64,000 nucleotides of DNA from an uncultured candidate division Zixibacteria bacterium (GTDB lineage Bacteria > Zixibacteria > MSB-5A5 > UBA10806): contig CAWDFP010000006.1 of NCBI GenBank assembly GCA_963801605.1, positions 224,001 through 288,000 of the forward strand, given 5' to 3'. The notes beneath the pieces were generated by a model. The model was not told the origin of the DNA. It saw only the letters and a list, made by a program, of their open reading frames with translations, and did not search any database. Shown here one piece after another: positions 34,254 through 58,752 of this stretch (its first letter is position 1; every line of letters begins with the position of its first letter). The translations under genes and the position numbers were made by a program.

Positions 34254-37200
34254 TTATTGGCCAGCTCCGTTCTGTGCAGGAGCATTAATGACAGGCGTTC
34301 CAGGGTTCAGAAGAATGTCGCCAGCAGGCAAGCAGTCGGGGCATCCATGAACCATCGGACCACCCTTGAAGTAGCTCACCATGAAGGTAACATCGAGACC
34401 GTTGAAGGAACAGGACGCATTAACGTCACCAGCGACAAACCAGGTATGACCAGGTGTGCATTCGCAGGAGTACGGCGGAGGCGGACCACCCTTGAAGTAA
34501 CCAACTGAGTAAGTTACGTCAAGACCGTTGAATACCTGACTGTTGTTGGCATCACCGACGTGATAGTTGCAGGTGCCGCCACCCGTAATCTGGAAGGTAA
34601 CGGGGATAGTGTGCACTGCAATTGTAGGCTCGTTGGTGGTAATAATGACTGCACCATAGTAGGTACCCACCGCGAGACCGGTACCGTTCATCATAACGTT
34701 CATCTGGGTAGTATTACCAGGAGCAACGCTGAATGAGGTCTGGTCGATTGTGAGCCATGGAGTAAAGGTGGTGCCCATTAAGCACAGCGAAAGGTCATAG
34801 GCGCCGACCGTAAATGTCGCACCGCCATCAGGCGATTGCAGCGACATCATATCGCCACCAAATGAATCCTGCCAGAGGAAGTTACAACCGTCAACGCTGA
34901 TATCCTGAACTGAAATCCAGCCAGAGAACAGGGTGACTTCTTCCGGTAGAGTAACATCGAATTCCACTTCCGGCCATCCATTGAAGAGATTACCGGTTTG
35001 GACTGGGCTGACAGAAACATCATAAGATGCAATCTCAGCGCCGGGGAATCCGCCAGCATCCTGATAGAACTTAACCTGGAGCATTGCAGGATCTTCAACG
35101 CATGAAGACCAACCAGCGTTGTATGTAAGCTGGAGACCCCATACCTTAACTTCGTTGATGTGAGCGGTTAGGCCAACGAAGCTCTCATAAGCAGTATATC
35201 CAAGCTCTGCAGAAGAAGTGGCAAATGTCCAAGCTTCATCAGGTAGAGTCGGACCCTGGGAGACGATCGAACCTTCGGGGCAACCCGGAGGAGGAGGAGG
35301 AGGTACGACGGCCGCTATATTCAGCGTGTAAGAGCCTGAGGCACCAGTATAACCATCAACAACAACCAGGATTTGCTGGCCGGCTAATAATGGAATGTTG
35401 GTGAGCTCTGACTGCAGACCGCAAGCGTCATCATTACCGCAGATGATGTCGGCCTCGGTAGGCTCGGTCGGGCAGGTGAAGTTGTAGAGAAGCAGACCGG
35501 AATCGTAACCGCTGCCGCAGAGCGAGAAGGTGTAGATGCTGTCATACGGAGCAGTCCACTTGAAGGTCACATCGGGGCCGGCGCAAGAGCCATTGGCGAA
35601 GAAGGAACCCTGCCAGCAGGCGGGCTGAGCAGTAAATGGACCGTAGTTATTTGCATAACCAGCAGTAGTACCAGCATCGCTGACTGGCTCGGTGTTGCCG
35701 AGATCGATGAAGTCGGCGCAGTTATCACCGCCCTGGAGAATCGCACGCTGATCCTTCGGGGGCATCGGGACTTCAACCTTCAACGGAGTTGGAGGAGCAG
35801 AAATTGCGCCCTTGTTATCAATCGGAGTGGGCGGCAGAGTCCGCAACGGTGATGGAGCCTGAATTGTGATATAAGCAGTACCGTCTAACTGAGCGTCACC
35901 AGTATTGCTAATGGTAAGAAGCTGGTTAGCGGAACCACCTGGCGCAGCCTGACCATTAACTTCGGTCGGGTTTACGCCAAAGATCGGTACGCCGCAAACG
36001 ATGGCGCCAGTGCAAGGCACGCCATCATCGGTGATATCGAGTTGGAAATCACCAGTAGCGCCGCCGTAACCCTGAACCAAAACCAGGTAGGTGGCTGTGG
36101 GATCGGAACACCAGCTAAGAGAGCTTCTTAAACCAAACTCAACGCAGTTATCATCATTACCGCCGACGCAGATCGGAGTCTCGCAGCTATAGCAGAAGAC
36201 GTTGATCTTGGTGTCATAGGTAGTGTAAGCATTACAGGTTGAGGCAGTCATGGTGTTGCCGGTACCTTGAACGCTGTACCAAATACCAGCGGCGTCAATT
36301 GTGGTTCCGCAAGTCGGGAACTCGGAATCGAGAGTAGCATCAGCTGTAGAGCCGACTTCCGTGCCGGGAACAGTCATTTGAATCGCGCCGCTGCACAGAT
36401 CGTTGGCAGGCGGAGGCGGGCAGGCGGTACCGTTTACATTAAGTGTATACGGGCCAACTGAGCCAGTGGCGGGATCGTTCATAACTGGATAATAATAAGT
36501 TCCGGCAGGAACGTGGCGGAATACGACAGTAACATTGCCGTCGGGGCAAGTTGTTACGTCGAACGAGAAGTAGGGGACAGTGCCGGTGCAGGGGCAATCG
36601 ATTGCCATGCCCAGCCAGGCATTACCGAAAGCAGGAGTGGTGCCGCAGTAATCGACTGTAATGTCGAGGCACTCTGTGGTGGTAAAGCCTTCCCATACAT
36701 TCGCGAAGGAAGAGAAGCTGGCGCAATCACCAATTGCTAATGCATTAGTGTTGTCACCGGTGAAGGTCAACGGTGTTCCAGCAACTAACGGTACTGGGAC
36801 CACGTTTTCGCACAGGTCGTTCGGAGGAGGAGGAGGAGGAGTAGTCAGGGTTACGGATGCCACATAGTCGGCTCCGCAAGGTACCCCTGTGAACACTGAC
36901 GGGCCGACCCACAACCAGTAGGTGCCGGCGGTCACGGTAGTGGAAATTGTAAGAGGAGTGCACTCGATTGCAGTGCCACTTGCGAGAGTAATTGCGCCGG
37001 CGCAACCATTGTTACCATCAAGGATGAACAGAAGCAGCGGGAATTCCGCATCGACTGTGAAATTGATGGTCTTGAGTTCGCTAACGGTCAACTGATACCA
37101 GTCGGTATCGCGATAGTTGAGGCCGGTGAACATGAATGTACCAGAAGTTCCGCAAATGACGTCGCCGTCAAAGAGATCCTGGAAAACCGCTGGGTCTGAA

Positions 37201-39214
37201 TTGCAGCCGCCATTGGTGACGTCAACATATTCGTCATAGCAAGTCGGCTCACCTTCGGGCACGCCCTCAGGAGGACAGGTAACGACGCACGGAGGTTCGT
37301 AAGTAACGTCGAGTTGGTATGGGCCGCAATAAGTGTCGCTAAAACCTTCCACGGTCAGATAAACTACGCCCGCGGTAAGATTAGTAACTCTAAGTTCGGA
37401 CATTAAGCCAGGGCAATTGAGGCCGTCGTCATTATAGCCCAGGTCCTGGGAACAGGGCGACGTACCGAGGTAAATATAGGAATCCCAATCGGTAGCTGAA
37501 TTGCACAAGCTGAATGTATAAGTACCATCATTGGGAAGTGTGATTTCCCAGATCTGATCTTCGGAAGCGCGCAAGGTGCAATTGTTGATAGCGCCGCAGG
37601 TATTGCCATCAGTCCAGGTACCGGGAGCGGTAACTTGGAAATCTGCTGTCGGCGGAGGAGGAGGATCAGTAACGGAAGCCGTAACATAGTACGGGGTTCC
37701 GCAGGTCACGCCTGTAAATACCGACGGACCTATGAAAATGTAATAATCGCCAGGATCAACCACGGCGGAAAGAACGCCGGTGGAGCATGGCAGAACGGTC
37801 AACGGGCCGGCAGTGACACCACCGGGGCAGGGAGCTGAAATGATGTACATTAACATCGGGAATTCAGCAACTGCTGTAGCGGTAATGGTCTTGCGCTCGG
37901 CAACCGAAAGGGTGTACCAATCGGTATCACGATATTGTAAACCGGTGAACAAGTATGTGCCGGCTGTTGCGCAGATGGTCTCGCCATCTACGATTGTTCC
38001 AAATACGTTTGGAGTGGAATTGCAGCCGCCATTGGTGACGTCAACATATTCGTCATAGCAATCGGGCTCGCCTTCCGGTGTATTTGGATCGGGGCATACT
38101 ACGTTGCACTCGGTGGCCGCATTAATGGTCAGCATGAAATCTGAAATGCAAGTGGGGGACGGCCAGGTATCAATCATAATATAATAAGTGCCCGCTGTAA
38201 GGTTAATTGCAGGAAATCCGTGCGGGGTAGAGCCGCCCATTGTGCTGGTGGCAATACAGGTTGTCGGATTTGGCGGGCAGGCGTTATCGATCAAAATACC
38301 AGTCCAGGTGGTACCAAGAGGATCAAGGTTGATTCCATAAGTACCATCTTCAGTAACGTCGAGCTGGTAGATGATGTCTTCGCCACCATCGTATGAACCC
38401 AGGCAGGTAGCATTATAATCGTCGAGTCTGCCGCAGGTATGGTTTTCGTCAGAATAGGGCAGCTGAGCAGGAAGAGTAACGACGATTGGGTCTGTGCAGT
38501 TGTCGCCGGGAGTCGGGGCAGGGGTTTCGGTAACGTTCAAAGTGTAGTCGCCGGTGTAAGTGCTGTAACCGGTAACAACAATGTAATAGGTGTGTCCGGC
38601 CAGAACAGGAACGTTATCGACTTCAGATGCGGTACCGCAGAAATCGTCGTTGCAGGCGATTTGCGTAGAAGCATCGCCGTCATAGATGGCAATGCCGGTG
38701 TCGAAAGTGGAGCCGCACAGGGAGGCGTTAATCGCACCATCAGCAGCGGGAGCGTAGAAGTATACCACGTCCGCACCGCTTGAACCCAGGCAGCTCGGGC
38801 TATAGTCGTGGGCATAGCCAACGTTTGTGCCAGCATCCGAATACGGAAGCGACGGAATCTCCGTGGCATCAGCAAAAGTATCGCCACCCTGGAGGATAAC
38901 TCTCTGGTCAACCGGAGGAAGAGTGCCGCCGGAAACCTTAACGATTTCTGGATGGACTGGCACTGTTGAGTTATCAGTAGCAGAGGTCATCGGCTGAGCC
39001 GAGGCTGGCTTAGCTTTCGAGGTTTGTTTTTGAACTACCGGCTGTAGATTGGTTGTTGCCTGATGAGTCGCATCAATAGCCGCTTGGGGAGAGGTAGAGC
39101 AGGACGGAGAGTAGTAACCTGAGGCTGCTCACCCTTTACCACGGAATTGCCTGCGAAAGCAAAGCTCCAACACAACAGCATAATAGCCAAAGACAATAGA
39201 AGAGTTTTCTTCAT
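34254..39214 (-). CDS. Large (~1650 aa) secreted Cys/acidic-rich multidomain protein (repeated PPC-like beta-sandwiches, Ig-like domains) ending in a dockerin-like module; frameshift at ~39085-39110
   Basis: Signal peptide MKKTLLLSLAIMLLCWSFAFA in ORF 39035..39226; repeated SLCGSxFDT..CNDDxCG and EGEPxCYDEYVDVTNGGCNS domains; poly-Pro linkers; GDANNSQVFNGLDVTY...GDVNASCSFNGLDVTF; no CTD. Confidence 0.8.
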
Positions 39215-39342
39215 ATCGTTCTCCAATTAATCTTCAGTTTGAAAAAAAAGCGAAACTAACGAAACCTAAGGTCCTGATTTCCTGTTGGTTTTTTACGGTT
39301 TACGAAGAATAGAAGTCACTATAAAAAATGCAGCTTCTGCAA

Positions 39343-39353
39343 TCACCTCCTTC
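39343..39353 (-). promoter_or_regulatory. Orphan perfect Shine-Dalgarno (GAAGGAGGTGA), 129 nt upstream of the 39214 start
   Basis: No properly spaced start codon follows. The same 11-mer sits at the same offset upstream of the 57799 gene. Confidence 0.55.
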
Positions 39354-39539
39354 GTTACTTTTAGTATTTGATTGATTTCTAAAATAAACATAAGTAGAAA
39401 TTAGCGTTGCTGATTTGCTTTGTAATTTCACTTTACCCGAAAGATCCTCCAGAGAAGTTGTCATTCTGGATATGCAGGAATATAGATTGATCCGCTATAA
39501 ATTAAAGCAGGACCCGTCACCAAATATCCCGCAACTGAT

Positions 39540-39642: not shown

Positions 39643-42432
39643 TTAGCGCTTGCAGTTCCCGGCAAAAGGCGGAGGACCTCCCTTTAAGAAGGTCACCAGG
39701 TAGGTGACATCCAAACCATTGACTGAGCATGAGCCATTGGCATCAGCGCGCAAAATAGGATCGGGGGGCGGCGGGCCTCCCTTCAGGTAGCTGATCAAAT
39801 AAACAACATCCAAACCGTTAACGTCACCCGAGCCGTTAGCGTCGCCAGGGACAAAGGTTGGCCCAATAAGTGTAGTATCCACAAGCGTTTGCGCTTCGGG
39901 AGCACCTGTAAACGGTTCAAGATTTCCGGCCAGATCGCGGGCTCGGGCCTCGAAATAATAAGTATGGCCATTTAATCCGGAGAATGTTGATGATAGTCCT
40001 GAAATGCCTATTCGCCAGTCAACCCAGGTTCCTCCGGATCCATCGCGCGAACGGACATCGTAAATGCCTGAGAGACCGGAACCTACATCGCCTCCCGTGC
40101 TCCAGCTGACATTGAAATTGAGCAAATTGGTCTGTTCCGGTGACGAGGCGACACATCCGGACGGCGGAACATTATCAAACTTGATCGTATCCTGAGCACG
40201 GTTCAGGCATGATTTATTTCCGGCGCCATCGACCAGCCACAGGTATAGAATTGACTGGCCGCTGACAAGGGCGGTGTAGCTTACCGGCGGAGTGCTGGAT
40301 AGATGTCCGGTGGTGTCGTTATCCGAACCTGGGACTGAACCAACTTTATAAAAGGCCTGAACAATACCGGAAGGATCTGTCGGGTTGGTCCAATTCAGGG
40401 AGAAGACCGGATTGGTCGTCCAGGTATGGGGCGTGATGGCGAAGCCAATCGGAGCATTAGGAGCGGTATTATCGAGGGTGAAAGCTCGGCTGGCATAAGT
40501 GGCAAAATTACCGGCAACATCCCGCGCTCTGACGCGCCAGAAAATCCGGCTATCGGCAGGTAAATTTGACGCTGGGGTATAATTCGTGATGGTTGTGGAA
40601 TCGTTAACCGTCTGCGGGTTGGCAAAAAGCGAATCTGTATCGATTTGAATGAAATATTTGCTGATGCCCGATCCGCCAACGTCAGTTACGGTCTGCCAGG
40701 AAAAAGCGGGACGGCGATTATTGGTGAAAGCGTTCTGGGCCGGGGCTACCAATACAGCCGTATTGGGCTTGCGGGTATCTATTTTGAATGATGAAGTTGG
40801 CGTGTAGCTTGTCCAAATCGTGCCGTTACCGGCTCTGGTTCGCCAGTACCAGGTACCGTCTATAAGGCTATCGGGCGATACATAGGTCGTATCCGTAATC
40901 GTGGAATCGTTGATATCGGGCGAAGCGAAGGTGGTCTGCTGATCGACCTGGAGATGGTAAACAGTCGCCTGGGCAGTATCAATCCAGATAAATGTGGGAT
41001 GAGGATTATTTATCCAAACCGCTGCGATGGGCGAAACGTTTATCGGCACCGCCACGGGTATCCCCAGGCCGGCTACCGCGCTGGCAGCATTGATTCGGCC
41101 ATGGCCAAGCTGATTGGGATAGCCCGGATTCAAGGAACTGATATCATCGGCGGTATTTTCAATGCGGGTTATCACTGCGGCCCGCGTCATCGACGGCGCG
41201 AGGGCTCGAATCAGCCCCACCAGCCCGACCACATGAGGGGCGGCCATCGAAGTGCCATCCATATAAGTATAGGTATCGTTAAAATAGGTCGAATAGATAT
41301 TGACTCCGGGAGCAGAGATATCAACCCAACTTCCGTAATTCGAAAAAGTAGCTTTATGATCGGTTTGGTCGGTCGCCGCCACCGCGACGACATCGCTTCT
41401 GGTGCAAAGATAAGGAGCAGTGGTATTATCATCGTTGCCGGCGGCTGAGACTATTACGATGCCGGCATTGGAGGCATGAGTGGCCGCTAAAGCAATACCG
41501 CCGGAATTATCTGATCCCCAGGAGCAATTAATCGCTTTGGCGCCATTGTCAGCGGCATAATCAAAAGCTGACGCCGCATAGCTCATCTGGACATAGCCGT
41601 TGCCATCGGTGCCTTCATAGCCGATTCTCAAACACATGATCGAACATTTAAAGCCCAAACCGGCGATGCCGGTGCTGTTGTTGGTTTCAGCCGAGGCGAT
41701 GCCGGCGCAGTGAGTCCCATGACCATAATGATCCATTGGATTATTATCCGGGACACTGCCATCATCGGTAGGATCGACCGGAGGCCAGAACGGGCTATCG
41801 ACCCAATCCCAGCCGCGGATATCATCGATATAGTTGTTGCCATCGTCGTCGATGCCATTGACGGGATCGTCAAAATTATACCAGATATTGCCATCGAGAT
41901 CGGGATGATCCCAGTCCACGCCGGTATCGGCAATTCCCAGAATGACTGTGGAATCGCCGCGGCCGACATCCCAGGCCTGGCGGGCGTCGATGGTTGTCAG
42001 CGCCCATTGAGAACTCAGGGAGGGATCGTTGGGACTATAAAAGACGCGGTGAATGCCATCAGGCTCGACATGCTCGATGGTGGCGAGCTTGGCGTAAGCT
42101 TCGAGGACTAACTCGAGATCAACCGTATTTTTAAATATCAACGAATAATATCCGGCCATAGCCTTTTCTCCACGCTTCTCTGCGCCGGGGAAAAGGGGAC
42201 GTATCCGAACAACTTCAAATTGACGATTTAAGGCATCAATATCCTGTAATCCGGTAACAATAATCCCCTGATTTACGACCGGAGATACGGGAGCATATTG
42301 AGGCTTAATTGCGATAACTATATTATTGGGAGAATAGGTAACACCATCTTCTAAGTACTTTGCATGGGATATGTTGGGGATCGAGACAAGTGCGGCTAGT
42401 AGTAATACCAGAGCCGCTCCATAGCATTTCAC
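39643..42432 (-). CDS. Secreted S8 subtilisin-like serine protease with Fn3/Ig-like domains and a C-terminal dockerin-like module
   Basis: Catalytic triad GIADTGVD / HGTHCAG / GTSMAAPHV; prodomain; GDANGSGDVNGLDVVYL...ADANGSCSVNGLDVTYL; no CTD. Confidence 0.92.
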   Translation of the reverse strand: MKCYGAALVLLLAALVSIPNISHAKYLEDGVTYSPNNIVIAIKPQYAPVSPVVNQGIIVTGLQDIDALNRQFEVVRIRPLFPGAEKRGEKAMAGYYSLIFKNTVDLELVLEAYAKLATIEHVEPDGIHRVFYSPNDPSLSSQWALTTIDARQAWDVGRGDSTVILGIADTGVDWDHPDLDGNIWYNFDDPVNGIDDDGNNYIDDIRGWDWVDSPFWPPVDPTDDGSVPDNNPMDHYGHGTHCAGIASAETNNSTGIAGLGFKCSIMCLRIGYEGTDGNGYVQMSYAASAFDYAADNGAKAINCSWGSDNSGGIALAATHASNAGIVIVSAAGNDDNTTAPYLCTRSDVVAVAATDQTDHKATFSNYGSWVDISAPGVNIYSTYFNDTYTYMDGTSMAAPHVVGLVGLIRALAPSMTRAAVITRIENTADDISSLNPGYPNQLGHGRINAASAVAGLGIPVAVPINVSPIAAVWINNPHPTFIWIDTAQATVYHLQVDQQTTFASPDINDSTITDTTYVSPDSLIDGTWYWRTRAGNGTIWTSYTPTSSFKIDTRKPNTAVLVAPAQNAFTNNRRPAFSWQTVTDVGGSGISKYFIQIDTDSLFANPQTVNDSTTITNYTPASNLPADSRIFWRVRARDVAGNFATYASRAFTLDNTAPNAPIGFAITPHTWTTNPVFSLNWTNPTDPSGIVQAFYKVGSVPGSDNDTTGHLSSTPPVSYTALVSGQSILYLWLVDGAGNKSCLNRAQDTIKFDNVPPSGCVASSPEQTNLLNFNVSWSTGGDVGSGLSGIYDVRSRDGSGGTWVDWRIGISGLSSTFSGLNGHTYYFEARARDLAGNLEPFTGAPEAQTLVDTTLIGPTFVPGDANGSGDVNGLDVVYLISYLKGGPPPPDPILRADANGSCSVNGLDVTYLVTFLKGGPPPFAGNCKR

Positions 42433-42478
42433 AAGAAAATTCTCCTTTCTCGGTAGGGCCGATAACCTCGAGCAAGTT

Positions 42479-43957: not shown

Positions 43958-43974
43958 CCTCACCAGCCTCAATC

Positions 43975-49900: not shown

Positions 49901-51948
49901 GTTGGAGCACGATCGATATTGGTCACGGTTATGTTTACATATTGAGTATCAGCCAAAGCATTAGAATTCGCGATTAATCTTACCTGATAAGGACCAGCCT
50001 GACTGTAATTAGGATCGAAAATCAAGGCTCCAACTCCACCGGTAGAGTCGTGGAATGAGGCGTTGGTTGGAAGCTGTTGGGCAAGTAAAGTTATAAGATC
50101 GCCATCAGGATCAGAGGCGGCGATTCTCACTGCCAAATGACCACCCTCGGCAACGCTCTGCGGGTTGACAGGGGTGATAACGGGCTTGCGATCGACGTTG
50201 GTAACGGTAATAGAAACAATCTCGGTATCGGCGAGAGTATTCGAGTGTGCAATGATACTAACCTGATAGGCCGCTGCTTGAACGTAACTGGGATCAAATA
50301 TTAGACCCCCTCTGCCACCGGTGGAATCAACGAAAGAAGCGTTGGCTGGAAGATTTAAAGCAGTCAGTGTTATAACGTCACCGGCATCAGGATCAGTTGC
50401 CGAGATCCGAACTGCCAGATGGCCGCCCTCAGGTACCGTTTGAGGCGGCACCGTGGCGATCACAGGTGGACGGTCTATTGCGGTAACTGTAATGGGAACA
50501 AGTTCGGTATCGGCCAAACCGCCTGCATTGGCGATAAATATAACCTGGTAGTTGCCGTTCTGAGTGTAATCCGGATTAAAAATGAATCCACCAATTCCTC
50601 CGGTGGAATCGTGGAATGAGGAATTTAGCGGCAGTTGCTGTGCAAGCAAGGTAACGATATCGCCATCCGGATCAGCAGCCGTAACTCGAATCTCCAGATG
50701 CCCGCCCTCGGCGACGCTTCTGGGACCGATGGTCGTAAAAACCGGCGCTCTATCGACATTGGTTACCGTTATATTAACAATCTGGGTGTCTGCCAAAGTA
50801 TTGGCGTTAGCTATAAGCCTGATCTGGTAGCCCCCCGATTGAGCATAATTGGGATCGAAAATCAAGCTACCAACGCCTCCAGTGGAATCATGAAATGCGG
50901 CGTTAGTCGGGAGTTGCTGAGCAAGAAGAGTAATGATATCGCCATCGGGATCAGTAGCGGTTACTCTTAACGCTAAATGTCCACCCTCCGGAACTGATTG
51001 GGCCGATACAGGTGTAATTACCGGTTTGCGATCAACGTTAGTTACCGTGATATTGACAAGCTCTGTGTCCGAAACAACGTTAGAGGTAGCGATAATCCTG
51101 ACTTGATAGCCTCCGGCTTGAGCGTAACTCGGATCGAATATTATACCACCAACTCCGCCCGTAGAATCGTGGAATGTAGCATTTGCCGGCAAATTCTGGG
51201 CGCTGAGTGTAATTGGATCTCCATCCGGATCCGAGGATGTAATTCTTACGGCCAGATGACCGCCTTCAGGCACAGTCTGAGGAGAAACCGGCGCAATAAC
51301 CGGCGCTCTATCGGTGTTGGTGACTGTAATATTGACCAGTTCCGTATCCGCCAAAGCGTTCGATGTCGCTATAATCCTGACGGCAAATAATCCTGCCTGG
51401 GTATAATCGGGACTAAATATAAGGCCACCAACGCCGCCCGTAGAATCGTGAAAAGAAGCGTTCGCGGGAAGCTGCTCCGCATGAAGAGTTATGATATCGC
51501 CATCGGGATCGGTCGCGGTAGTCCTGACGTTTAATATCGCACCTTCAGCCACGCTTTGGGCGCCGATTGAAGTAAGCACCGGGGCGCGATCAACATTAAT
51601 TACGGTAATATCGACGAGCTCGCTATCCGCCGAACCGGCGGTATCGCTAACGATGAAGCGAACTTGATATAGCCCTGCCTGGGAATAGTCCGGTAAAAAT
51701 GTGAATCCGCCGACACCACCCGTGGAATCATTGAAAGTTGCATTGGTCGGAAGCGATTCAGCAACCAGGCTGATAATATCGCCCGCATCGGGATCGCTGG
51801 CAGTGACCCGAATATCTAAACGGCCACCTTCGTTCACAGATTGAGCCCCGATCGGCGCGAGGATCGGAGCATTATTTTGGGCCAGTGACGTTTGAGCAGA
51901 AAACAATATTCCACTGAGTGCTATAGCGAGAATTATCAAGCGCCTCAT
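43975..51948 (-). CDS. Giant secreted Ig/cadherin-like tandem-repeat protein (~26 repeats of ~96 aa) with a C-terminal dockerin-like module
   Basis: Repeat NRAPVLxxIGxxxVxEG..AxDPDGD..LPxNAxFxD..FxPxYxQxGxY; ends RGDANNSGELNGLDVIYLVNYFKGG...ADANGNGVVNGLDVVYL; no CTD. Confidence 0.9.
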   Translation of the reverse strand: MRRLIILAIALSGILFSAQTSLAQNNAPILAPIGAQSVNEGGRLDIRVTASDPDAGDIISLVAESLPTNATFNDSTGGVGGFTFLPDYSQAGLYQVRFIVSDTAGSADSELVDITVINVDRAPVLTSIGAQSVAEGAILNVRTTATDPDGDIITLHAEQLPANASFHDSTGGVGGLIFSPDYTQAGLFAVRIIATSNALADTELVNITVTNTDRAPVIAPVSPQTVPEGGHLAVRITSSDPDGDPITLSAQNLPANATFHDSTGGVGGIIFDPSYAQAGGYQVRIIATSNVVSDTELVNITVTNVDRKPVITPVSAQSVPEGGHLALRVTATDPDGDIITLLAQQLPTNAAFHDSTGGVGSLIFDPNYAQSGGYQIRLIANANTLADTQIVNITVTNVDRAPVFTTIGPRSVAEGGHLEIRVTAADPDGDIVTLLAQQLPLNSSFHDSTGGIGGFIFNPDYTQNGNYQVIFIANAGGLADTELVPITVTAIDRPPVIATVPPQTVPEGGHLAVRISATDPDAGDVITLTALNLPANASFVDSTGGRGGLIFDPSYVQAAAYQVSIIAHSNTLADTEIVSITVTNVDRKPVITPVNPQSVAEGGHLAVRIAASDPDGDLITLLAQQLPTNASFHDSTGGVGALIFDPNYSQAGPYQVRLIANSNALADTQYVNITVTNIDRAPTITPISPQTIPEAGHLAIRVASTDPDGDTITLLAHNLPGNAVFHDSTGGIGSLIFDPNYTQAGPYQVTIIANSNALADTELVNITVTNVDRAPVFIDVAPQSLSEGQTLNLNLSASDPDGDIITLTSGTLPANATFTDLGGGAGRLVFSPDLTQEGSYNLSFFASSNSPALRDTMIVSVTVLHTNAAPVLNPIGPHSINENQRLSFIVSASDLDGQIPTLTAHNLPLHAAFTDSLNGRGLFVFDPDYTQAGPYTVLFIASDGVLADSENVNITVNNVNRPPVLNPIGNRSVIEGSTISFRTSATDPDLQSLTLVAQNLPTNATFVDSTNGSGVFRFTPGYTQSGFYDIRFIASDGSLADSELVRITVLDAGNQAPVLDSIPPQTVYEGQRLALEIVGHDPDSTIPALQAFNLPANSAFADSGNGRGSFIFNPSFNQTGSYNVLFRAFDGSLYDSLWVQVTVLNTPLMPVLDPIGPRVVNEGAMLQFVVTSSDPDGSLPHLSASPLPLNATFADSLNGHGLFRFAPNYAQNGIYTVLFIASIGPLADSEYVQITVNDAGNQPPILAPIGPRSVFENDSLVFNISATDADGTFPILTVSGLPANASFVDNLNGTGHFAFYPNFFESGIYQLLFIASDGIAADSELVPVTVLNVNRVPVLVTIGPHSVSEGGHLEFVVQSYDLDGNIPVLSAYQLPLNASFYDSTNGNGVFNFAPDFNQQGDYYVLFTSFDGISADSELVHITVSSSNQPPVINPIPNQTIIEGGTLIFAVHATDADGQIPILTSANLPLNATFADSGNGTGVFRYQPDFTQSGITFVDFYASDGLDSDTLSVQITTIESGNQSPVLAPIGPQTVNEGQLLQFTVTASDADGNDPMMGALNLPLNANYLDHGNGTGTFTFNPSYDQAGVDTINFFATDGMLADSEHVIITVNNINRAPILSPIGAQTITEGDSLALSITASDPDGNTIAFSAVPLVPNMVFVDNLNGTANFGFRPNFMQSGIYDVTFITADSSLADSEIVRITVLDAGNQAPRLASIDTAYYVTEGESLRVNIAATDADGNPLALSAVPLYTNMTFVDNSNGTGTLNFHPNFQQAGNYVIMFRAFDGVAFDSAATRIYVAEQGNQYPVLAPIGPRTVAEGDSLVVNVSAVDPEGFIPFLYLDNPPGFSSFVDNRNGTGRFVYHPDYYSAGVHSVRFIAMDNGGLTDYEDVAITVTDVNRAPWISFRGDTVVAEGVALVDTVVVYDSTDYQPGTLSLTHGYMPPNATLTIIGNGIGRFVFQPAFNQAGVDSAYFVAVDSDVPPLSANRWVHFRINNVNRRPLLQQVPPSEIDQGDTLTLALHAIDPDGDPVTLFINSLTEPRIPVNSTFEDLGGGVGRFIFHPDYTQSGIYIINFAATDGNLIDTKPGLIQIHDLGNQPPTLNPIGAFTITEGDSLAIHLISTDPDSTRPALSIIGALSNMVFIDSTNGHGSLNYHALYNQAGVYNLSFLASDGQYADTQSTTLTVLEAGNQRPRITPMSNWSINEGMVLRLRVSSSDPDSIVPILTAHNMPLNSTLADSGNGRGLFTFSPSYSQNGTYHVTFLAIDREYPDVADSAEVSINVININRAPTIDSIGPFTVNEGANLAFTVVSHDEDATISHLTVGHIPPNASFVDNGDGTGFFNFNPSYFQAGVDSARFIAVDAVDPNIFTIRTVRITILNVNRRPILGYIPADTTLGDGFLITINFVATDPDSIPPILFQRGKPDSATFLDNNQGSGTLQWRPRIADIGTHNLYLGCRDRSNPAMSDSQLVVINVILAGNHPPIFAREPNHRMRANDTLNITLTATDYDGDLLTITSAYNLPFGMTLTDHGNNQAALYWIPQPLQHGDTVATLVATDPLGLTDSLRIVFTVITYIRGDANNSGELNGLDVIYLVNYFKGGPRPPVMEAADANGNGVVNGLDVVYLLNYFKGGPPPPLLIGGKTDIKIVPVGQLNSDGL

Positions 51949-52035: not shown

Positions 52036-54165
52036 TTATTTTACCAGAAGCATTCGCTTAGTCTGATCAAAATCTTTTGACTGCAGACGATAGAAGAATA
52101 CGCCCGTAGCCACACTTTCACCATTATCGGAACGTCCATTCCAGGTGACGCTATGATTTCCAGCCGACATATTTTCATTTAAGAGCGTAGTTACTTTTCG
52201 TCCCAGCACATCATAAATCGAGAGCTCGACCTGCCCGTTGTCAGGCAGATCAAAACTTATCATAGTGCTGGAGTTAAAGGGATTGGGATAATTCTGATTC
52301 AAAATATAATCGGTCGGCAACTGGCCTTTAATCTCTGAGGGAATAAAAGCCGAGGCACGATCGACGATCAGAAATTCGTTTAGTCTGATATCCCGCGGGC
52401 TGAAACTGTTGTTCTTGAGACGGAATCTGAAAGTCGCCAATTCACCGGTAGACGGTCCAAAAGTGGAGCCGCCGAGATCGTAGAAAACGCCTTTGGCTTT
52501 GCCATCACCAACACTGTGATCGAATCTGAGATTTTGAACCATTGATCCCGGTTCAACATCGAGAGGTTCCAGGGTCTCGGCGTTGTAGCTAAGATCATAT
52601 TGCAGCGCTGCGGCTTCGGTACCGACATCGGCCCACAAAGGTATGGTGATGATATCCCCCGAAATATCGGCGTCCTTTTTGAGTTCGACAAAGGCAAGTG
52701 GTGTCGGCGGGACTGGCCCTGGTGAAAGAGGTATTTGTAAAATTTGATCGATGACGTTTTGAAGATCGCTGACATTGACTCTGGTATCGCGGTTGATATC
52801 CGCGGCGTCAAATTGCCTGACATCGAGCGTTACGCGATCGATGATGAAAGCCACGATAGTAACACAGTCACCGACATTAACGTGCTCATCAAGATTGGCA
52901 TCACCGAAGCGATCCACAGTGAAATATCCGCTATTAGTTACCAGGCTCCGCGAGGTGCCAATGCTGTCGATAACTTCGATGGCCGAATCGAGAACTACCG
53001 GCGTACGCCCTACGAGCGCGGCAGTATTAACATTGGTTACAAATCGCATTATGGGCCCGGTGCCGCCAATGATTGGATCAAGGCCCGGAGAGAAAACGAG
53101 CACTACGATTCGACCGAGTACCGGTTCGCTATACCAGAATCCCAATCCGGCACAGCGATCGGTGGGAATAACATCGGCAACATCAATCTGGTTATGATCA
53201 TAAAAATAATTAAACTGCAAGCCGTAAACATTTCGGGAATTGAAAAGCTCGATATTAATATCCCGAGTTAAAGCCCCGGGAACACCTCCCTGGCCGCCAA
53301 CAACCGAAAGGAAATCGTTAGGTTGATCCAATACAATAATTGGAACCATCATCGGAGTGGTGTTATTGTGATCGTCGACTGCCGTAAAGGTAACAATAAA
53401 GGTATCTGGCCCCTGCTCAAAAGTCGGCGCAAATGTAAAGGTTCCCGATACAGTCGAATCGCCTTGTACGGTCGGGAAAGAGGCATTGGCTGGCAGGCTC
53501 GAAGCCGATAATGTTATTATATCGCCGTCGAGATCATAGGAAGTAACGGGAAATTGCAATATTTGGCCTTCCCTAACCTCCTGTGTACCTATGCTTCCTA
53601 TAACCGGCGGCTGGTTAGAAGTGCCTCCGGTGACAGTGATGGAACCGTCTACCAACCGCGGGTAAAAAATATCGCCGCTGCCGGTCGTATCCGCCCAGGC
53701 GTTTTCAAAATGATTAGTCGTCGGATCAGTTCCAAAACGTAAATATGTTCTATCTCCATACTGGGTTGATGGCCTGATTCTGAAAGTCATCCTGGCCACA
53801 ACTCCATGGCCATGATGGAGCACATGTCCCGGAATGTTGGGGCTCCAGGTGACTGCCGATATAACAAGCATGCTATCGATATATATTCTACCATCAATAG
53901 TCTCGAGGGTGTCGCCATTGCGCCCGATTCTCTGAATACCGATGTATTGAAGGGCGTTGGGATTTAAGAACACCACCGCACCGTAGCCCTGTAAAACGAT
54001 ATCCATGTTCGAAATATATAAGTCGACCTGGATCGTATCGCCTGGCCGGCCGTAGCTGTCCACAACTTTCATAGTGTCGTTTGGCAATTGTATCTGCGCC
54101 AGGGCGCTCGATGCCACCCCAAACAAAATTCCGATTATCATCACCGGTAATATCAGCCTTCTCAT
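52036..54165 (-). CDS. Scaffoldin-like secreted protein: three cohesin-like domains, one Ig repeat, an internal dockerin-like module and an FlgD/T9SS-type CTD
   Basis: GRPGDTIQVDLYISN, GVPGALTRDINIELFN..VYGLQFNYFYD and GDIITIPLWAD..AAALQYDLSYN; FGDANLDEHVNVGD..AADINRDTRVNVSD; NYPNPFN...RMLLVK. Confidence 0.75.
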   Translation of the reverse strand: MRRLILPVMIIGILFGVASSALAQIQLPNDTMKVVDSYGRPGDTIQVDLYISNMDIVLQGYGAVVFLNPNALQYIGIQRIGRNGDTLETIDGRIYIDSMLVISAVTWSPNIPGHVLHHGHGVVARMTFRIRPSTQYGDRTYLRFGTDPTTNHFENAWADTTGSGDIFYPRLVDGSITVTGGTSNQPPVIGSIGTQEVREGQILQFPVTSYDLDGDIITLSASSLPANASFPTVQGDSTVSGTFTFAPTFEQGPDTFIVTFTAVDDHNNTTPMMVPIIVLDQPNDFLSVVGGQGGVPGALTRDINIELFNSRNVYGLQFNYFYDHNQIDVADVIPTDRCAGLGFWYSEPVLGRIVVLVFSPGLDPIIGGTGPIMRFVTNVNTAALVGRTPVVLDSAIEVIDSIGTSRSLVTNSGYFTVDRFGDANLDEHVNVGDCVTIVAFIIDRVTLDVRQFDAADINRDTRVNVSDLQNVIDQILQIPLSPGPVPPTPLAFVELKKDADISGDIITIPLWADVGTEAAALQYDLSYNAETLEPLDVEPGSMVQNLRFDHSVGDGKAKGVFYDLGGSTFGPSTGELATFRFRLKNNSFSPRDIRLNEFLIVDRASAFIPSEIKGQLPTDYILNQNYPNPFNSSTMISFDLPDNGQVELSIYDVLGRKVTTLLNENMSAGNHSVTWNGRSDNGESVATGVFFYRLQSKDFDQTKRMLLVK

Positions 54166-54178
54166 AACTTTGGCCTCA

Positions 54179-55003
54179 TTACTTTAAAAGTGTCATTGTT
54201 TTTGTTAAATCCCCACTCTTCGAACTATGCAATCTATAGAAATAAACCCCCGAAGTAATATTCTGCCCGGCCGAACTACCATCCCAGTACACAACAATTT
54301 CGCCAGGGCCGGTCCAGCCCGAATATAGGACGCTCACGCTCCGTCCAAGCAGATCGTAAACGGTAAGATCAACCAAATCGGATTCCTTAAGCGTAAATGA
54401 AATCCTGGTCGTACCGTTAAACGGATTGGGATAGTTTTGCGCTAACGCGAATTGGCCAGGAACAATAGCATCTTCAGCGGCATCCGAGCCGGGTAATATT
54501 TGTATTTCCTGCCCAATTAAAACCGGCACAACCAGAGAGTCTCCGGTACAGTTTGAAAGAGAGTTTTGATGTGAGGTGGAATCGCTATCCTCGTATTGAA
54601 ATAGATAATAGCCGGGTTGAGCTCCATTTTGAATGACAAAGTCCAGAGTGGCAATTGCCCCGTTTCCGGGTACTATCGCGTTTTCGATCGGGCGCCAGGA
54701 CGTGCCAAATATTTCAGCTACACCATCCTCATCAAAATTCGCACCGAACAAATCGAATCCGTGTGAGCGTATCGTGAGATGCATGTCAAGCGGCCTGAAG
54801 GACCATTCATCGAAAGTAATGCGCGCCTGAAATCCACCGACCGCAAATGAATTGACGAGAAGCACGGGAACAGTAACTGTATCGCCCGGACTGCCAACTA
54901 ATGATGCGATGCTGAGCGTATCCAAGGTGGAATAGACTTGCGCCCAACAGCCGACTGAGATCGCTAATACGCACAAAATTACAACGACCTGCAATCTTAT
55001 CAA
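54179..55003 (-). CDS. Single cohesin-like domain protein with T9SS-type CTD
   Basis: TTG start after GGAGG; signal peptide; GSPGDTVTVPVLLVNSFAVGGFQARITFD...GNGAIATLDFVI; NYPNPFN...MTLLK. Confidence 0.75.
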   Translation of the reverse strand: MIRLQVVVILCVLAISVGCWAQVYSTLDTLSIASLVGSPGDTVTVPVLLVNSFAVGGFQARITFDEWSFRPLDMHLTIRSHGFDLFGANFDEDGVAEIFGTSWRPIENAIVPGNGAIATLDFVIQNGAQPGYYLFQYEDSDSTSHQNSLSNCTGDSLVVPVLIGQEIQILPGSDAAEDAIVPGQFALAQNYPNPFNGTTRISFTLKESDLVDLTVYDLLGRSVSVLYSGWTGPGEIVVYWDGSSAGQNITSGVYFYRLHSSKSGDLTKTMTLLK

Positions 55004-55237
55004 CCTTTTTCCTCCCTTAATCGTCCGCTACCTGCCATCAGTCCCTAAATAGGCCTTTGTTATTGCTGCTTAAGTATTTATCGGCATTGACGATGGCGGT
55101 GTTTAGAAGCCGCCAAAGTTTAGGCTCAGGTGCAGAGTTGCTAATATTAGTTAGGATTGTGACGATTCGATTCAATTAGCTTTCCTAATAATTAATTACG
55201 AAATTCCAAAATTCCAGCGGATTGCTTCAATATAATG

Positions 55238-55253
55238 TGCAAAAGCCGTGCCC
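55238..55253 (-). promoter_or_regulatory. sigma54 (-24/-12) promoter upstream of the 55003-39643 operon
   Basis: Minus strand GGGCACGGCTTTTGCA = GG-N10-GC, close to TGGCACG-N4-TTGCW; an AT-rich tract lies upstream. Confidence 0.65.
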
Positions 55254-55498
55254 CAGGCTGTAAGTTTTTAGATGATAGCAGATTAAGTTGATTCAAAGCC
55301 TTATGGCCCTTCAATGTTTCGGGAAAATAGGCGCTTGTTATTATTAAAAAAAAGAGGACGAGATTTACATAAAAAACTGATATTATAAAAAAAATACAAC
55401 TACTCACTTACTACTCCTGCGTTAATTAACTAATTTTTTGCATACTTTCTCTATATCGACCCCCTCTCCTTTTTCCAACCTTGTTTCATCTTTATGCA

Positions 55499-55531
55499 GG
55501 ATAAGAGAGGGAGATAATCCCTCTCTTATCC
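55499..55531 (-). terminator. Perfect 14-bp stem-loop just downstream of the 57799 gene (terminator or 3' stabiliser)
   Basis: GGATAAGAGAGGGA-GATAA-TCCCTCTCTTATCC; no poly-U tail. Confidence 0.6.
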
Positions 55532-55559
55532 AATACTACCTTTGAATAGAACCGCTGAA

Positions 55560-57799
55560 TTACTTCAGTAAGGTCATCTTCATGGTCTGGCTGTTGGAGC
55601 CAGCGGAGACCTTGGCAAAGTAAACGCCGGAAGCCACTTGGGAAGCATCCCAGGTGATCGACTGCGGGCCAACACCAAAGTGACCGTTCAAGGTCTCTAC
55701 CAACTGGCCGGTGATCGAGTAGATAGCTACTGTCACATCGGATTCGGTCGGCAGGGAGAACTTAATCAGTGTCTTGGCATTGAACGGATTCGGATAGTTC
55801 TGGCTGACTGCGAATTCGCTCGGTACGGGAGCGCCGACACGGCTCTCAAGCAAACGACCATAAGAATCGGCTGCGGAGGCTTCGGAAACGGTACCGGTAC
55901 CGGTCACTGTGAACAGAGTCTGTTCGCCAGCGGCAATTCTCTTGCCGGCCATGGAGTAAACCACAACAGAGAGCACGCCATTGGCGTCATTGGAGAGAAG
56001 CTCCATACCATTGGCTGCGACTGGGGTTCCGATTGTGCCATTGTGGGCAATGCGCACGAGGGCGCCACCAACCTCGACACCGGAATTGATGCTGACTACG
56101 CCATTAACCATATTGATGGAGGCGGAACCAACAGCAGGATCCAACTTCGGGGTGATGAAACCGTTAAGAATATTGATGAAGCGGACGAGATCAGCGATAT
56201 CGGCATGACCGTTACCGTTGAGGTCAGCGCCGGCCTCTTGGAGAGCGTCGTTACCAACATAGTGGGTATCGAACAAGCAGTGCGGGGACTGTCCGAAACC
56301 ATCGTCCTCTAACCACACAGCGGTACCTTCGATCAGCCTGCGAGCAACGAGAACGGCATCAGCTACTTCGTAGAAATAGCAGTTGAGGTTCGGGTCGCCT
56401 TTGAAGCTCTCGGGGTTAACAGTGGTCACGCAACCAGCGGTTAAGCCGGGATGAATGAACCAGTTACCAGTCTCATCAGAGACGGTATTGGAGGTGTAGT
56501 CACCAGGGCCTTCGGTAATGAAATCAATCGGGATTTCCATACCCCAGGGAAGGCCGGGGGCGACTGCATAGTGCAGTACGAGAACGCGGGAGTCAGCGAG
56601 ACCCCAGTACATCGGAGGACCATCTACGCCGTCATTGACGTCGGCGATCCAGACGAATCTGTCGGAACCAGCACCTACGGGATCCTGGATCCAGTTATGA
56701 TATTCGCTGCCATTATTGATGGCGGGCATCCAATCGACACCAACGAGATTAAGAGCGGTATTGTCGGTGTTGATGAGGATCTCAAAACCACCGATGCAGA
56801 TGTCGGTGTTGAGGGTGATAGCAACGTCAGTGATTGAGCCGGGGATACCAGCTGCGCAATGAGGCATAGAAAGGGCGGTAACTGCATGTTCGGCATCACC
56901 GCAGGTAACTGTAACTGTAACATTCAATGCCACGTGGTCAGTACCATCGAACAGATCGAATGCAACGACTTCGCCGTCTGTGAAGTTGGCGCAATAGCTG
57001 CCGGAAATTGTTCCGCCGGTACCAGTAGCGATAACGCCACCGGGGCCAGTGATGGTCAGAGTGTTCTCGGTATCGGTGTCATGACCGGCCAGAGGAATGC
57101 AACCGTACGGAGGCAGGGTGATGGTGGTCGGGCTATCCCAAACCGGGGCGGCGTTGGGAGAGAAGAACAGACCGGAGTACACTTGAGTCGGTACCACGTT
57201 GCGAACGCCATCCTGCATGCCCCAAAGGAGGCCTGCATTGGCTGGGTTGTGACCCTGGGAGAACGGATTGACTGTTGTGCCAATCAGGGCAGGGTTATTG
57301 ATGGTGTGCATATCTGAAGGTGGCGAGTAACTGCCAGGCACCAAGCGTGTAGATGAAATTCTGGCTCGTCACGAGGATCGGTCAGATATGCAAAACCCAG
57401 GAACGACTGGCTGGTGAAGCCAACAGGATATCGCCTATGACAAGAGCCGGAGGGGTATGGGGTGGGCTTGTAGACGTTATTGAGCACGGGGGTGAGGAAG
57501 GACCTATCATCCCAGAGGCCTACGCCAAAGGCGGGGAAGATGCCACCAGTGCGGGCTGAGATGATAAGATCGTCACTCATTAATGGTACATGCACGAAGT
57601 TGACTGAATCCGGATTTCCGGGTGTAGGATCAGTGGCGCCCCAAACCGGGATTTGGATATCTTTATCGATACCAACAGTCACCGGTGAACCATCAACGTT
57701 TCCAAAAGCGATGTGGAAGTTGGCGGGATCCGGCATTTGGGCCAGCGCCATGCTGAAAGGAAGGCATGCTGCCAATGCGAACAGCAACAATTTCTTCAT
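55560..57799 (-). CDS. Secreted multi-cohesin-like protein with an internal dockerin-like module and a T9SS-type CTD; +1 frameshifts at ~57364 and ~57312
   Basis: Signal peptide in ORF 57284..57799; bridging frame QNFIYTLGAWQLLATFR; GIPGSITDVAITLN..IGGFEILI; KGDPNLN..EVADAV / GADLNGNGHADIADLV; NYPNPFN...KMTLLK. Confidence 0.75.
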
Positions 57800-57927
57800 A
57801 ATTTACTCCTTAAACATTGCATGGGCGTTAAACTATTGACATTCTTAAGATTGCAATTTGCGGAAATCCCTTTCCACGGCAATCAAATACAACCCCTCTT
57901 TGAAGCTGTTTCTTCTCTCTGGTTGTC

Positions 57928-57938
57928 TCACCTCCTTC
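57928..57938 (-). promoter_or_regulatory. Orphan perfect Shine-Dalgarno (GAAGGAGGTGA), 129 nt upstream of the 57799 start
   Basis: No start codon at RBS distance; identical 11-mer and offset to 39343-39353. Confidence 0.55.
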
Positions 57939-57983
57939 AAGGAAATCAGGTATTGTCAAAACTATCGTAAAAAATACAAAAAT

Positions 57984-58752
57984 CTATTGACAGGGATCCG
58001 GCGGCGGATTAAAGCCCTTAAAATAGCCAACCAGATAGGTTACATCGATTCCATTGACCGAGTCTGAATGATTGGCATCGCCCGAGCAGAGGCAGCAGAA
58101 TCCCGGACCCAGTCCCTTTAGATAAGCCACAAGATAAGGTGACATCGAGGCCGTTGAGCTGCCCGCTGCAATTGACATCGCCTCGCGGATTGTTGCCGCA
58201 GCGGCCAGCCAAAACATAAACATAGTCTGTGTTTAGAGTTACGGAATCATAAAGAATGTTGCCGCTGGGATCCGAAACGTTGCCCCTGGTGAAAGCCAAA
58301 GCCTGGCTGCTGTCGCAGATAAGGTTATTATAATAATTCATGTGGATCGTAAATATAAGTCCATTGCCGGGAGGCAAAAATACTGAATGAGTGTCAGGCG
58401 GCATGACGGCTATACCAGTAACGATGATTTGAGAATCGGCGCCGGCGTGAACATTGGCACTGAACATTCTCCAGTTGCTGATCCGGCTGCCAGTAGTATC
58501 AGCGGCCTGAGGGTCACCGGGCTGAAACGTTAGCCAGGCTCGTTGAGTGGTAATGATACGAAATTCGAACCCTCCAACCGCACAACTGTTGTTCATGTAA
58601 ACAGGAATACTTATTCTTTGCAGCGAGCACGGCTCAACAGTAGCGCTGCCCAACGTAACAGTGATAGGACAATCGGCAAAGGCATACTGTGCCGCAACGA
58701 TTACCAATACAAATACAACCAGTGTTAGTTTCTTGAGATTTAGGTCAGCCAC
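57984..58752 (-). CDS. Small secreted cohesin-like + dockerin-like (adaptor) protein; +1 frameshift at ~58138
   Basis: GTG start after GGAGGG; signal peptide; ISIPVYMNNSCAVGGFEFRI...GNGLIFTIHM; RGDVNCSGQLNGLDVT|YLVAYLKG...SGDANHSDSVNGIDVTYLVGYFKG; no CTD. Confidence 0.75.

Follow-up and report, generated by a model that had tools for sequence, protein, structure and literature searches.

A cohesin–dockerin gene cluster

The window (the whole stretch of 64,000 nucleotides that was analysed) holds a reverse-strand cluster of cohesin and dockerin genes, the order of which is conserved throughout the taxonomic order. The features, with terminal dockerins called class 1 and internal ones class 2, are as follows:

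57984..58779 (−), gene A: signal peptide, cohesin 58231–58665, class-1 dockerin 57984–58185, no CTD
55560..57799 (−), gene B: N-terminal cohesin-like domain, linker, cohesin 56424–56858, class-2 dockerin (EVADA/DIADL) 56160–56402, X domain 55839–56099, CTD 55563–55826
54179..55003 (−), gene C: signal peptide, single cohesin 54509–54925, CTD 54182–54460 (PF00963 and TIGR04183 above cut-off)
52036..54165 (−), gene D: cohesin 53632–54081, Ig repeat, cohesin 52915–53319, class-2 dockerin (NVGD/NVSD) 52735–52908, cohesin 52327–52689, CTD 52039–52320
43975..51948 (−), gene E: 2657-aa stalk of Ig/cadherin repeats, class-1 dockerin 44041–44226 at the end, no CTD
42479..43972 (−), gene F: cohesin-fold domain 43412–43861, class-2 dockerin (EIADA/TIADL) 43226–43402, X domain 42785–43141, CTD 42482–42751
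39643..42432 (−): subtilase (S8) with Ig-like domains, class-1 dockerin 39649–39849 at the end, no CTD
34254..39214 (−): large secreted repeat protein (PPC-like domain), six-cysteine class-1 dockerin 34329–34559 at the end, no CTD

The cohesins of genes C and D lie above the Pfam cut-off (PF00963), and the gene C cohesin profile matches solved cohesins (5e-10); relatives have 1–3 copies of gene C per cluster. Cohesins are also the top Foldseek matches of the gene F model (6KGF, 2e-10; pTM 0.45) and of a model of a gene A orthologue (4DH2, 3e-10), an AlphaFold model from 12 sequences (pTM 0.63) in which the cohesin is confident and the dockerin has a pLDDT of 36–60, making it uninformative on intramolecular docking. 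The N-terminal domain of gene B and the X domains are recognised by our own profiles only.

In gene A, an extra base near 58137 parts repeat 1 from repeat 2 of the dockerin, and the orthologues in relatives are intact; as a cohesin is also present, the protein is a cohesin–dockerin adaptor within class 1. A frameshift, probably of assembly origin, breaks the reading frame of gene B near 57312; the base at 57312 is absent in 4 contigs from 2 RNA runs of related organisms, and in relatives the gene is a single ORF of 729–782 aa. The RNA contigs (three metatranscriptomes) come from related organisms, with a share of 0.06–0.10, and cover mainly gene B, giving no ranking of expression and having no bearing on the gene A frameshift. 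In gene 34254..39214, the signal peptide from 39214 sits in a different frame.

The class-1 dockerin and its recognition residues

The genes ending at 34254, 39643, 43975 and 57984 have a twin NG(L/I)DV repeat 7–33 residues before the stop, and the original observation that all four proteins lack a CTD is borne out. PF00404 matches 77 of 80 class-1 members at E ≤ 0.01, and the class-1 profile matches solved dockerins, best 6KG9 (4e-6). The same G-L/G-I pair, noted earlier in both repeats, is found in 37 of the 44 complete repeat pairs at relative positions 10/11, numbered by alignment to solved dockerins. Both repeats (44 pairs) keep G10, L/I11, Y15, V17, Y19, K21 and G22, and this internal symmetry of the recognition residues is, at the sequence level, that of a predicted dual binding mode. 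Of the canonical Ca2+ ligand positions of the loop (1, 3, 5, 9 and 12), D1, N3, N9 and D12 are retained; position 5 is mostly Ser and not Asp (29/44 and 36/44 repeats), because of which Ca2+ binding may be weakened. The module is furthermore disulfide-rich, with paired cysteines, and comes in a short two-cysteine and a long six-cysteine form.

The 10/11 pair is uniform inside a genome and varies between lineages, where G-S, I-S, I-D, I-L and P-L occur outside G-L and the terminal dockerin of one genome (G007) has I-A/I-S; G-L as a phylum-wide pair was therefore rejected. Uniformity per genome coupled with dependence on lineage is what a single receptor acting on many tags would lead one to expect.

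Mutual exclusion and exchange of the two tails

Genome-wide, 50 proteins have a terminal NGLDV dockerin, and the predicted mutual exclusion was found on counting, with an in-frame type IX secretion CTD in 0/50; the same genome has about 115 CTD proteins. All six of its class-2 proteins carry cohesins and a CTD, so that CTD occurrence differs sharply between the classes (0/50 vs 6/6, Fisher p 3e-8, the paralogues being non-independent). The exclusion is partly built in, because the tag and the CTD are both terminal modules. Frameshifts conceal no dockerin–CTD fusions, since the nearest CTD downstream of the 50 class-1 ORFs lies at least 1302 nt away. At 179 loci in other genomes, none of the 207 terminal dockerins has a CTD; the same profile gives six internal matches there, and the one with a CTD is the cassette dockerin of a gene D orthologue. 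A trade-off between CTDs and dockerins across genomes was considered and rejected: candidate counts from a first look, in the 118 of 151 genomes with listed CTD counts (the other 33 being left out), give a Spearman coefficient of +0.13, which is not negative and thus indicates no simple trade-off.

A paralogue ending in a CTD exists for 28 of 45 class-1 bodies; in 14 of the 45, the homology reaches within 25 residues of both tails, and in six it extends over at least 70% of both proteins. The alignments thus indicate that dockerin and CTD tails are interchangeable. Branching in the family trees bears on this to different degrees: the C25 tree requires at least two tail changes, on fully supported branches, one change suffices in a second family, and the LVIVD tree branches without resolution. 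The tagged cargo includes C25 (three proteins), S8, M28, M14, Omp28, LVIVD and Kelch proteins, with lengths up to 2657 aa. No glycoside hydrolase family was matched at E 1e-7 in 37 tagged ORFs, several of which are fragments or lack a Pfam match, nor in the four tagged proteins of the window.

Class-2 dockerins

The three class-2 proteins of the window (42479–43972, 52036–54165 and 55560–57799) carry the internal motifs originally described and, as had been claimed, both cohesins and a CTD, with cohesin or cohesin-fold domains and TIGR04183 above cut-off. Class 2 is, however, not one class but several types, namely EI(A/G)DA, NVGD and a third type at G000:C6:1905617. PF00404 matches just 6 of 17 EIADA-type dockerins, and the gene D dockerin is above cut-off. 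At 10/11 the class-2 pairs are V-G, I-G/I-A and I-A/I-S, conserved between lineages (V-G in 12 of 15 gene D orthologues). Class 2 is always found inside one conserved cohesin–dockerin–X–CTD cassette, and 35 of 36 complete EIADA-type ORFs in other genomes have a CTD.

Distribution across the phylum and secretion machinery

The tag occurs in 148 of 151 genomes of the phylum and a Pfam cohesin in 147. Two of the three tag-less genomes, G024 and G025 (96% and 94% complete), have neither tag nor cohesin by three cohesin profiles and retain 139 and 122 CTDs. The third, G131, has cohesins. The tag-less genomes represent only two families. G092, a candidate counter-example with tags and no Pfam cohesin, was dismissed, as the phylum profile gives eight cohesins. 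G150 (96% complete, with a gapped scaffold), likewise negative for a Pfam cohesin, has 40 tag matches, and no cohesin–CTD gene was found in it.

In the genus g76 the tag is retained, with 33 and 40 matches in the two genomes for which they were counted; a cohesin–CTD gene of 265–267 aa is present in 4/5 genomes, and class 2 in 1/5. Profile A8 gave no matches in 4/5 g76 genomes as against matches in 9/9 control genomes of that family, and the genes it missed were recovered with profile A6. With class 2 missing from four of the five genomes of a genus that has the tag, class 2 is evidently unnecessary for it, and the minimal pair is likely the tag plus a single cohesin–CTD protein. In the genome of the window, about 15 cohesin-like ORFs, with at most three cohesin-like domains per protein, stand against 50 tagged proteins, and two ORFs (G000:C6:1732366 and C7:388818) have a signal peptide and cohesin only, with no CTD.

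Type IX parts are present in this genome, with SprA, PorU and eight PorV/PorQ-family genes all above curated cut-offs and CTDs of type A; SprA is found in 150 of 151 phylum genomes. GspD reaches its curated cut-off in 0/18 genomes tested. The genome's own secretins are one PilQ above cut-off and a second, in a pilin-like cluster, that falls below the cut-offs of both PilQ and GspD; because it is neither by these cut-offs, a separate export route is still to be reckoned with. The tag-less genomes, too, have secretins.

A probable docking tag for cohesins with a CTD

Mutual exclusion, tail swapping, signal peptides, the SprA, PorU and PorV-family genes, conserved gene order and joint presence across the phylum are all observed, and the NGLDV dockerin is, we believe, probably a docking tag for CTD-anchored cohesins. 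The exclusion, the tail swaps and the joint phylum presence with cohesin–CTD proteins lend good support to the earlier view of class 1 as a general cargo tag in place of the CTD. As an overall explanation, we lean towards the terminal dockerin, at the place of the CTD, being a genome-wide docking tag that binds free cohesins of CTD-bearing partners; against it are the missing cohesin–CTD gene in G150, the cohesins without a tag in G131 and the small number of cohesins (~15) per 50 tags. Tagged proteins would cross the inner membrane by Sec, after which the dockerin would fold in the periplasm with Ca2+ and disulfides and bind a cohesin in either orientation. The partners are most likely gene C, a candidate receptor or carrier for the class-1 tag, and the N-terminal cohesins of genes B and D, and anchoring of the CTD-bearing partner in the manner of PorU substrates would keep tagged enzymes at the surface of the cell.

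For the outer-membrane step we favour a route in which tag and cohesin would pair in the periplasm and the complex be drawn through SprA behind the CTD of the partner. Such hitch-hiking export is plausible, if short of an even chance, and tagged proteins of up to 2657 aa would be a large load for it. Anchoring only, in which cargo is exported by another route (the unclassified secretin, or a PorV-family shuttle recognising the dockerin) and then captured by surface cohesins, strikes us as unlikely. It would accommodate very large cargo and a genome such as G150, which has tags and no detected cohesin–CTD gene, and both the second secretin in its pilin-like cluster and the eight PorV/PorQ-family genes offer it machinery; but secretins are shared with the tag-less genomes, GspD is nowhere above cut-off in the 18 genomes, and paralogues exchange CTD and dockerin with little else altered, which is simplest if both tails enter one pathway. 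It is quite improbable that the dockerin is no export or surface tag at all, the proteins being periplasmic or shed and the module a Ca2+- or disulfide-stabilised cap, or a ligand of cohesin-only proteins lacking a CTD. Although two such cohesin-only ORFs exist, and a degenerate Ca2+ loop with paired cysteines would suit a cap, the surface residues 10, 11, 15, 17, 19, 21 and 22 are conserved in both repeats (44 pairs) and shift together by lineage, paralogues of the cargo bear CTDs, G024 and G025 lose tag and cohesins together, and a 2657-aa stalk suits the surface better than the periplasm.

Class 2 had been read as linking scaffold to scaffold; that it would be a second, orthogonal specificity, with different scaffolds joined into a hierarchy, is a possibility that we regard as somewhat doubtful. 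Its 10/11 pairs are unlike G-L and are conserved across lineages, the linker of ~3 residues between cohesin and class-2 dockerin argues against pairing with that adjacent cohesin, and the gene F model has no confident packing between domains. On the other hand, every class-2 protein has a CTD anchor of its own, so that no link is needed for attachment, four of the five genomes of g76, where the tag is retained, lack the cassette, the tag-less G131 has a related cassette by itself, and the I-A/I-S pair is also that of the terminal dockerin in G007. Class 2 would rather be a fixed part of its cassette, likely pairing scaffolds with themselves or with each other.

Returning to the docking tag, its most far-reaching version is a second tier of sorting on top of type IX secretion, in which dozens of CTD-less proteins hitch-hike through SprA with a small cohesin–CTD carrier and are then anchored, the lineage-specific 10/11 residues act as a self-recognition code, and tails are swapped freely; we offer this tentatively. 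If true, a cohesin–dockerin pair would be a general sorting signal across the outer membrane, beyond cellulosome assembly, CTD-based prediction of secretomes would overlook about one third of this genome's surface proteins (50 tagged vs about 115 with a CTD), and the phylum would be a source of many new orthogonal cohesin–dockerin pairs. The question of whether a type IX translocon can move a non-covalent complex also becomes testable in Flavobacterium johnsoniae.

Comparison with known systems

Among the openly available papers listed in our literature search there was nothing on a dockerin/cohesin system in Zixibacteria and no report of a CTD-less partner co-exported through a cohesin–dockerin link. 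Clostridial cellulosomes, with their type I and type II cohesin–dockerin pairs (e.g., C. acetobutylicum CaDoc0917–CaCohA2, PDB 6KG8–6KGF), share the twin Ca2+-loop/helix repeats, the symmetric 10/11 residues, a lineage-specific recognition pair and the cohesin fold (PMC8063739), and OlpA and OlpC of C. thermocellum (PDB 3UL4, 4DH2) are likewise single-cohesin anchors. Unlike these, the present system has an outer membrane to cross, a T9SS-type CTD anchor and a disulfide-rich dockerin. The features of a cellulosome proper were looked for and not found: no cellulase or hemicellulase among the 37 tagged ORFs scanned and the four of the window, no long tandem-cohesin scaffoldin in this genome and no CBM match in the window genes. 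The “Planctosome” proposed for Nemodlikiaceae (Planctomycetes), hypothetical as well, is similar in that peptidases would be displayed on a diderm cell by cohesin–dockerin pairs that form no cellulosome, and in an adaptor with both modules, and is described with a Lamin-tail anchor and no CTD or T9SS (PMC6461901).

In the T9SS as described, a type A CTD, the PorV shuttle and the PorU sortase act on cargo that has its own CTD (PMC10994853, PMC5445135); the present genome has SprA, PorU and genes of the PorV family as well, along with about 115 CTDs, and the cargo families overlap. A close parallel has been put forward in silico for Ca. Stygibacter (Cloacimonadota; Williams et al. 2021, PMC8542988), also of a Gram-negative candidate phylum: a cellulosome-like system in which signal-peptide enzymes, S8 and C25 included, have C-terminal dockerins and a cohesin scaffoldin has a CTD for surface attachment; the passages that describe it do not discuss how the CTD-less enzymes cross the outer membrane. 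That system has one 3755-aa multi-cohesin, CBM-bearing scaffoldin and few enzymes, glycoside hydrolases among them, in contrast to the 50 tagged proteins, several small cohesin–CTD proteins, conserved cluster, two kinds of dockerin and tail swapping seen here. CTD-anchored cohesins with dockerin enzymes have thus already been proposed for Cloacimonadota, and what the present work contributes is the exchange of the two tails, the probable minimal pair and a recognition code that differs by lineage.

Gene cluster and dockerin classes

Because single-base frameshifts are scattered through the assembly (3.06 Mb, 87% complete), all counting used stop-to-stop segments in six frames, with the neighbouring DNA checked too. 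Terminal dockerins are called class 1 (the "tag") and internal ones class 2; CTD is the type IX secretion C-terminal domain, and C6 and C7 are contigs of the genome studied (G000), the window being C6:224001-288000.

Genes of the cluster
34254 to 58779, minus strand: cluster of eight genes
Gene A: cohesin, twin NG(L/I)DV dockerin at the end, no CTD
Gene E: 2657-aa Ig stalk, twin NG(L/I)DV dockerin at the end, no CTD
Subtilase gene: twin NG(L/I)DV dockerin at the end, no CTD
Large repeat protein gene: twin NG(L/I)DV dockerin at the end, no CTD
Genes B, D and F: cohesin, internal dockerin, further beta-sandwich and CTD, in that order
Gene C: single cohesin and CTD

The four CTD-less proteins with a terminal dockerin (A, E, subtilase, large repeat protein) and the three internal-dockerin proteins with cohesin and CTD (B, D, F) are as originally described. 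Gene B (window 55560-55860) and a 1740-aa paralogue at G000:C6:178514 share an identical 100-residue C-terminus (294/300 nt), suggesting recent tail duplication or conversion. RNA contigs from three runs of related organisms fall, within window 55500-57950, mainly on gene B and the region upstream, a weak hint that it is abundant. Upstream, the cluster is preceded by a Ser/Thr kinase-TPR gene (window 59627-63127); in one relative (G046, L242:2050-3000), a kinase-like ORF comes after a cohesin-CTD gene.

Exclusion of tag and CTD

The class-1 set was seeded by motif and its profile then searched down to 12 bits; Pfam and broader profiles bring in only class-2 proteins and one 66-aa fragment beyond it. 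The mutual exclusion expected genome-wide is borne out: with 123 CTD loci in the genome (112 at ≥25 bits; 115 by TIGR04183), none of the 50 class-1 proteins shares a reading frame with a CTD, and 1302 nt separate the closest CTD downstream from its tag. The frame of a lone half-motif at C6:564092 is likewise free of a CTD. All six proteins with internal dockerins have cohesins and a CTD. Among relatives, a CTD is found in 0/127 class-1-like ORFs (71 loci, chosen by a pattern containing NG) and on 0/207 terminal dockerins over 179 non-self loci, where it occurs in one of six internal hits, a D orthologue; for complete EIADA-type (class-2) ORFs of non-self loci the count is 35/36. Part of the exclusion follows from both modules being terminal; the informative part is that no CTD was found to follow a dockerin of the class-1 sequence type, though class 2 plainly shows that the dockerin-then-CTD order works.

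Interchangeable tails and cargo

Judged by sequence homology, dockerin and CTD tails are interchangeable. A CTD-ending paralogue exists for 28 of the 45 class-1 bodies of at least 60 aa; in 14 of the 45 the homology stops no more than 25 residues short of both tails, and in six it spans at least 70% of each of the two proteins. The tree of the C25 gingipain-like family (three dockerin, three CTD) requires no fewer than two tail changes, on branches with full support, and that of another family one; the LVIVD tree does not settle tail changes. Window 1-11103 holds a tandem array of genes for LVIVD-repeat beta-propellers with CTDs, two of them frameshifted within the CTD, and paralogues elsewhere end in dockerin. 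An M28 peptidase with CTD (window 25898-26923) has a paralogue at C6:1452519 with a class-1 dockerin from the same junction.

Tagged cargo (domain scan of 37 ORFs plus four in the window) includes C25, S8, M28, M14, Omp28, LVIVD, Kelch, sortilin-like and cupredoxin proteins, with no glycoside hydrolase among those scanned. A signal-peptide-like stretch is found in 34 of 49 tagged segments of at least 100 aa, the other 15 looking like frameshift fragments, and a clear internal membrane helix in none of the 49. Two adjacent 115-aa ORFs (C6:961413-961757 and C6:961799-962143) comprise only signal peptide and class-1 dockerin, and might act as caps or compete for cohesin sites.

Dockerin sequence and structure models

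Aligned to solved dockerins, class 1 has G-L at relative positions 10/11, which are specificity determinants according to PMC8063739, where sequence symmetry is taken to indicate dual binding. G10, L/I11, Y15, V17, Y19, K21 and G22 are kept in both repeats, and the originally noted G-L/G-I pair recurs in both repeats of 37/44 complete pairs in the genome. Two subtypes occur, with repeat spacing of ~42 and six cysteines or ~33 and two; in 43/44, repeat 2 carries a Cys at position 6 of its loop.

The terminal pair is uniform inside one genome and differs by lineage: G-L, G-V, G-S, G-G, I-A/I-S, I-S and I-D among gene A orthologues, I-L in 16/28 repeats of G150 and P-L in 24/36 of G122, both relatives. 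Class-2 pairs are stable across lineages (V-G in 12/15 D orthologues; I-G/I-A and I-A/I-S in F orthologues). The pair alone is insufficient to define class, because one relative's terminal dockerin (G007) has I-A/I-S. Cohesins directly ahead of class-2 dockerins are better conserved, with a mean top-residue frequency of 0.67-0.68, than free cohesins, with 0.48-0.56, computed on different sequence sets. These patterns fit one lineage-specific receptor serving many tags and, for class 2, a partner that stays fixed.

In the gene F model (pLDDT 81, pTM 0.45) the class-2 region forms three helices, and the best fold matches are to cohesins; the model of an A orthologue shows a cohesin fold and a poorly resolved dockerin. 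By profile, the nearest solved dockerin and cohesin are a C. acetobutylicum pair, a closeness that may be due to chance.

Conservation across the phylum

In most of 20 relative loci, as far as contigs extend, the genes run A, B, C (one to three copies), D, E; a looser version of this order occurs in another three families, and F comes after E in the sole relative locus extending that far. Of 151 phylum genomes, 148 match the tag profile, 147 Pfam cohesin, 146 the class-2 profile and 150 SprA. Tag, cohesins (by three profiles) and cassette (the cohesin-dockerin-further domain-CTD unit of class 2) are all absent from G024 and G025, which have 139 and 122 CTDs; G131 lacks the tag and has a lone cohesin-dockerin-like-cohesin-CTD cassette. 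As these tag-less genomes represent two families, at most two events are indicated. CTD and dockerin counts show no negative correlation across genomes, which argues against a simple trade-off.

One genus (g76) retains the tag (33 matches in G122, 40 in G150) and has the class-2 cassette in one of five genomes, with a 265-267 aa signal peptide-cohesin-CTD gene in four of five; none was found in G150, these genomes being gapped scaffolds. Since this genus keeps these genes while class 2 is mostly absent, its gene content suggests that the minimal pair consists of the tag and a single cohesin-CTD. Other g76 cohesins examined precede a terminal dockerin, with no CTD. Loci L213-L239 of this genus and L120 hold many CTD-less enzyme-cohesin-terminal dockerin proteins, which could chain head to tail. 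Adaptor-like ORFs of another relative (G092; L125:1-1848 and L124:1159-3306) have dockerin(s) then cohesin, the former with a complete end and no CTD.

Export route and mechanism

SprA, PorU and eight PorV/PorQ-family genes score above curated cut-offs in the genome. Two papers describe substrates leaving SprA CTD-first through a lateral opening, PorV-bound (PMC10994853), and most type IX cargo folding in the periplasm, with PorU replacing the CTD by a lipid anchor (PMC5445135). On this account, a tagged protein without a CTD must either ride on a carrier or leave by another route. The original reading of class 1 as a cargo tag replacing the CTD stands as far as exclusion, tail interchange and joint presence with cohesins go; receptor binding and export route we infer. 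Tagged proteins would probably enter the periplasm by Sec export, fold there and bind through the tag to free cohesins on CTD proteins, leading to surface display. Export by hitch-hiking on such carriers is a real possibility, short of probable, and separate export followed by capture, the other route, is unlikely. GspD is above cut-off in 0/18 genomes, and the two secretins here are one PilQ and one unclassified. That class 2 links scaffold to scaffold, as first proposed, is possible but less likely than not; otherwise, it would be self-pairing or a structural part of its own cassette.

The unclassified secretin belongs to a second pilin/secretin cluster (C6:995000-1013000), is followed by large exported proteins and may be part of a divergent type II-like route. 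Two proteins of signal peptide and cohesin only, with no CTD (C6:1732366-1732992 and C7:388818-389396, the latter directly after a dockerin-tagged gene), are possible periplasmic chaperones or shuttles.

Comparison with known systems

The system resembles the cellulosome in its proposed way of working and is not one: no cellulase was found among the tagged ORFs scanned, and no multi-cohesin scaffoldin in this genome. Our search, mainly of open-access papers, found no literature on Zixibacteria dockerins or type IX hitch-hiking. CTD-anchored cohesins with dockerin enzymes are already proposed: PMC8542988 describes, in silico, a scaffoldin of this kind and dockerin enzymes for Cloacimonadota. 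PMC6461901 proposes, also in silico, a peptidase "planctosome".
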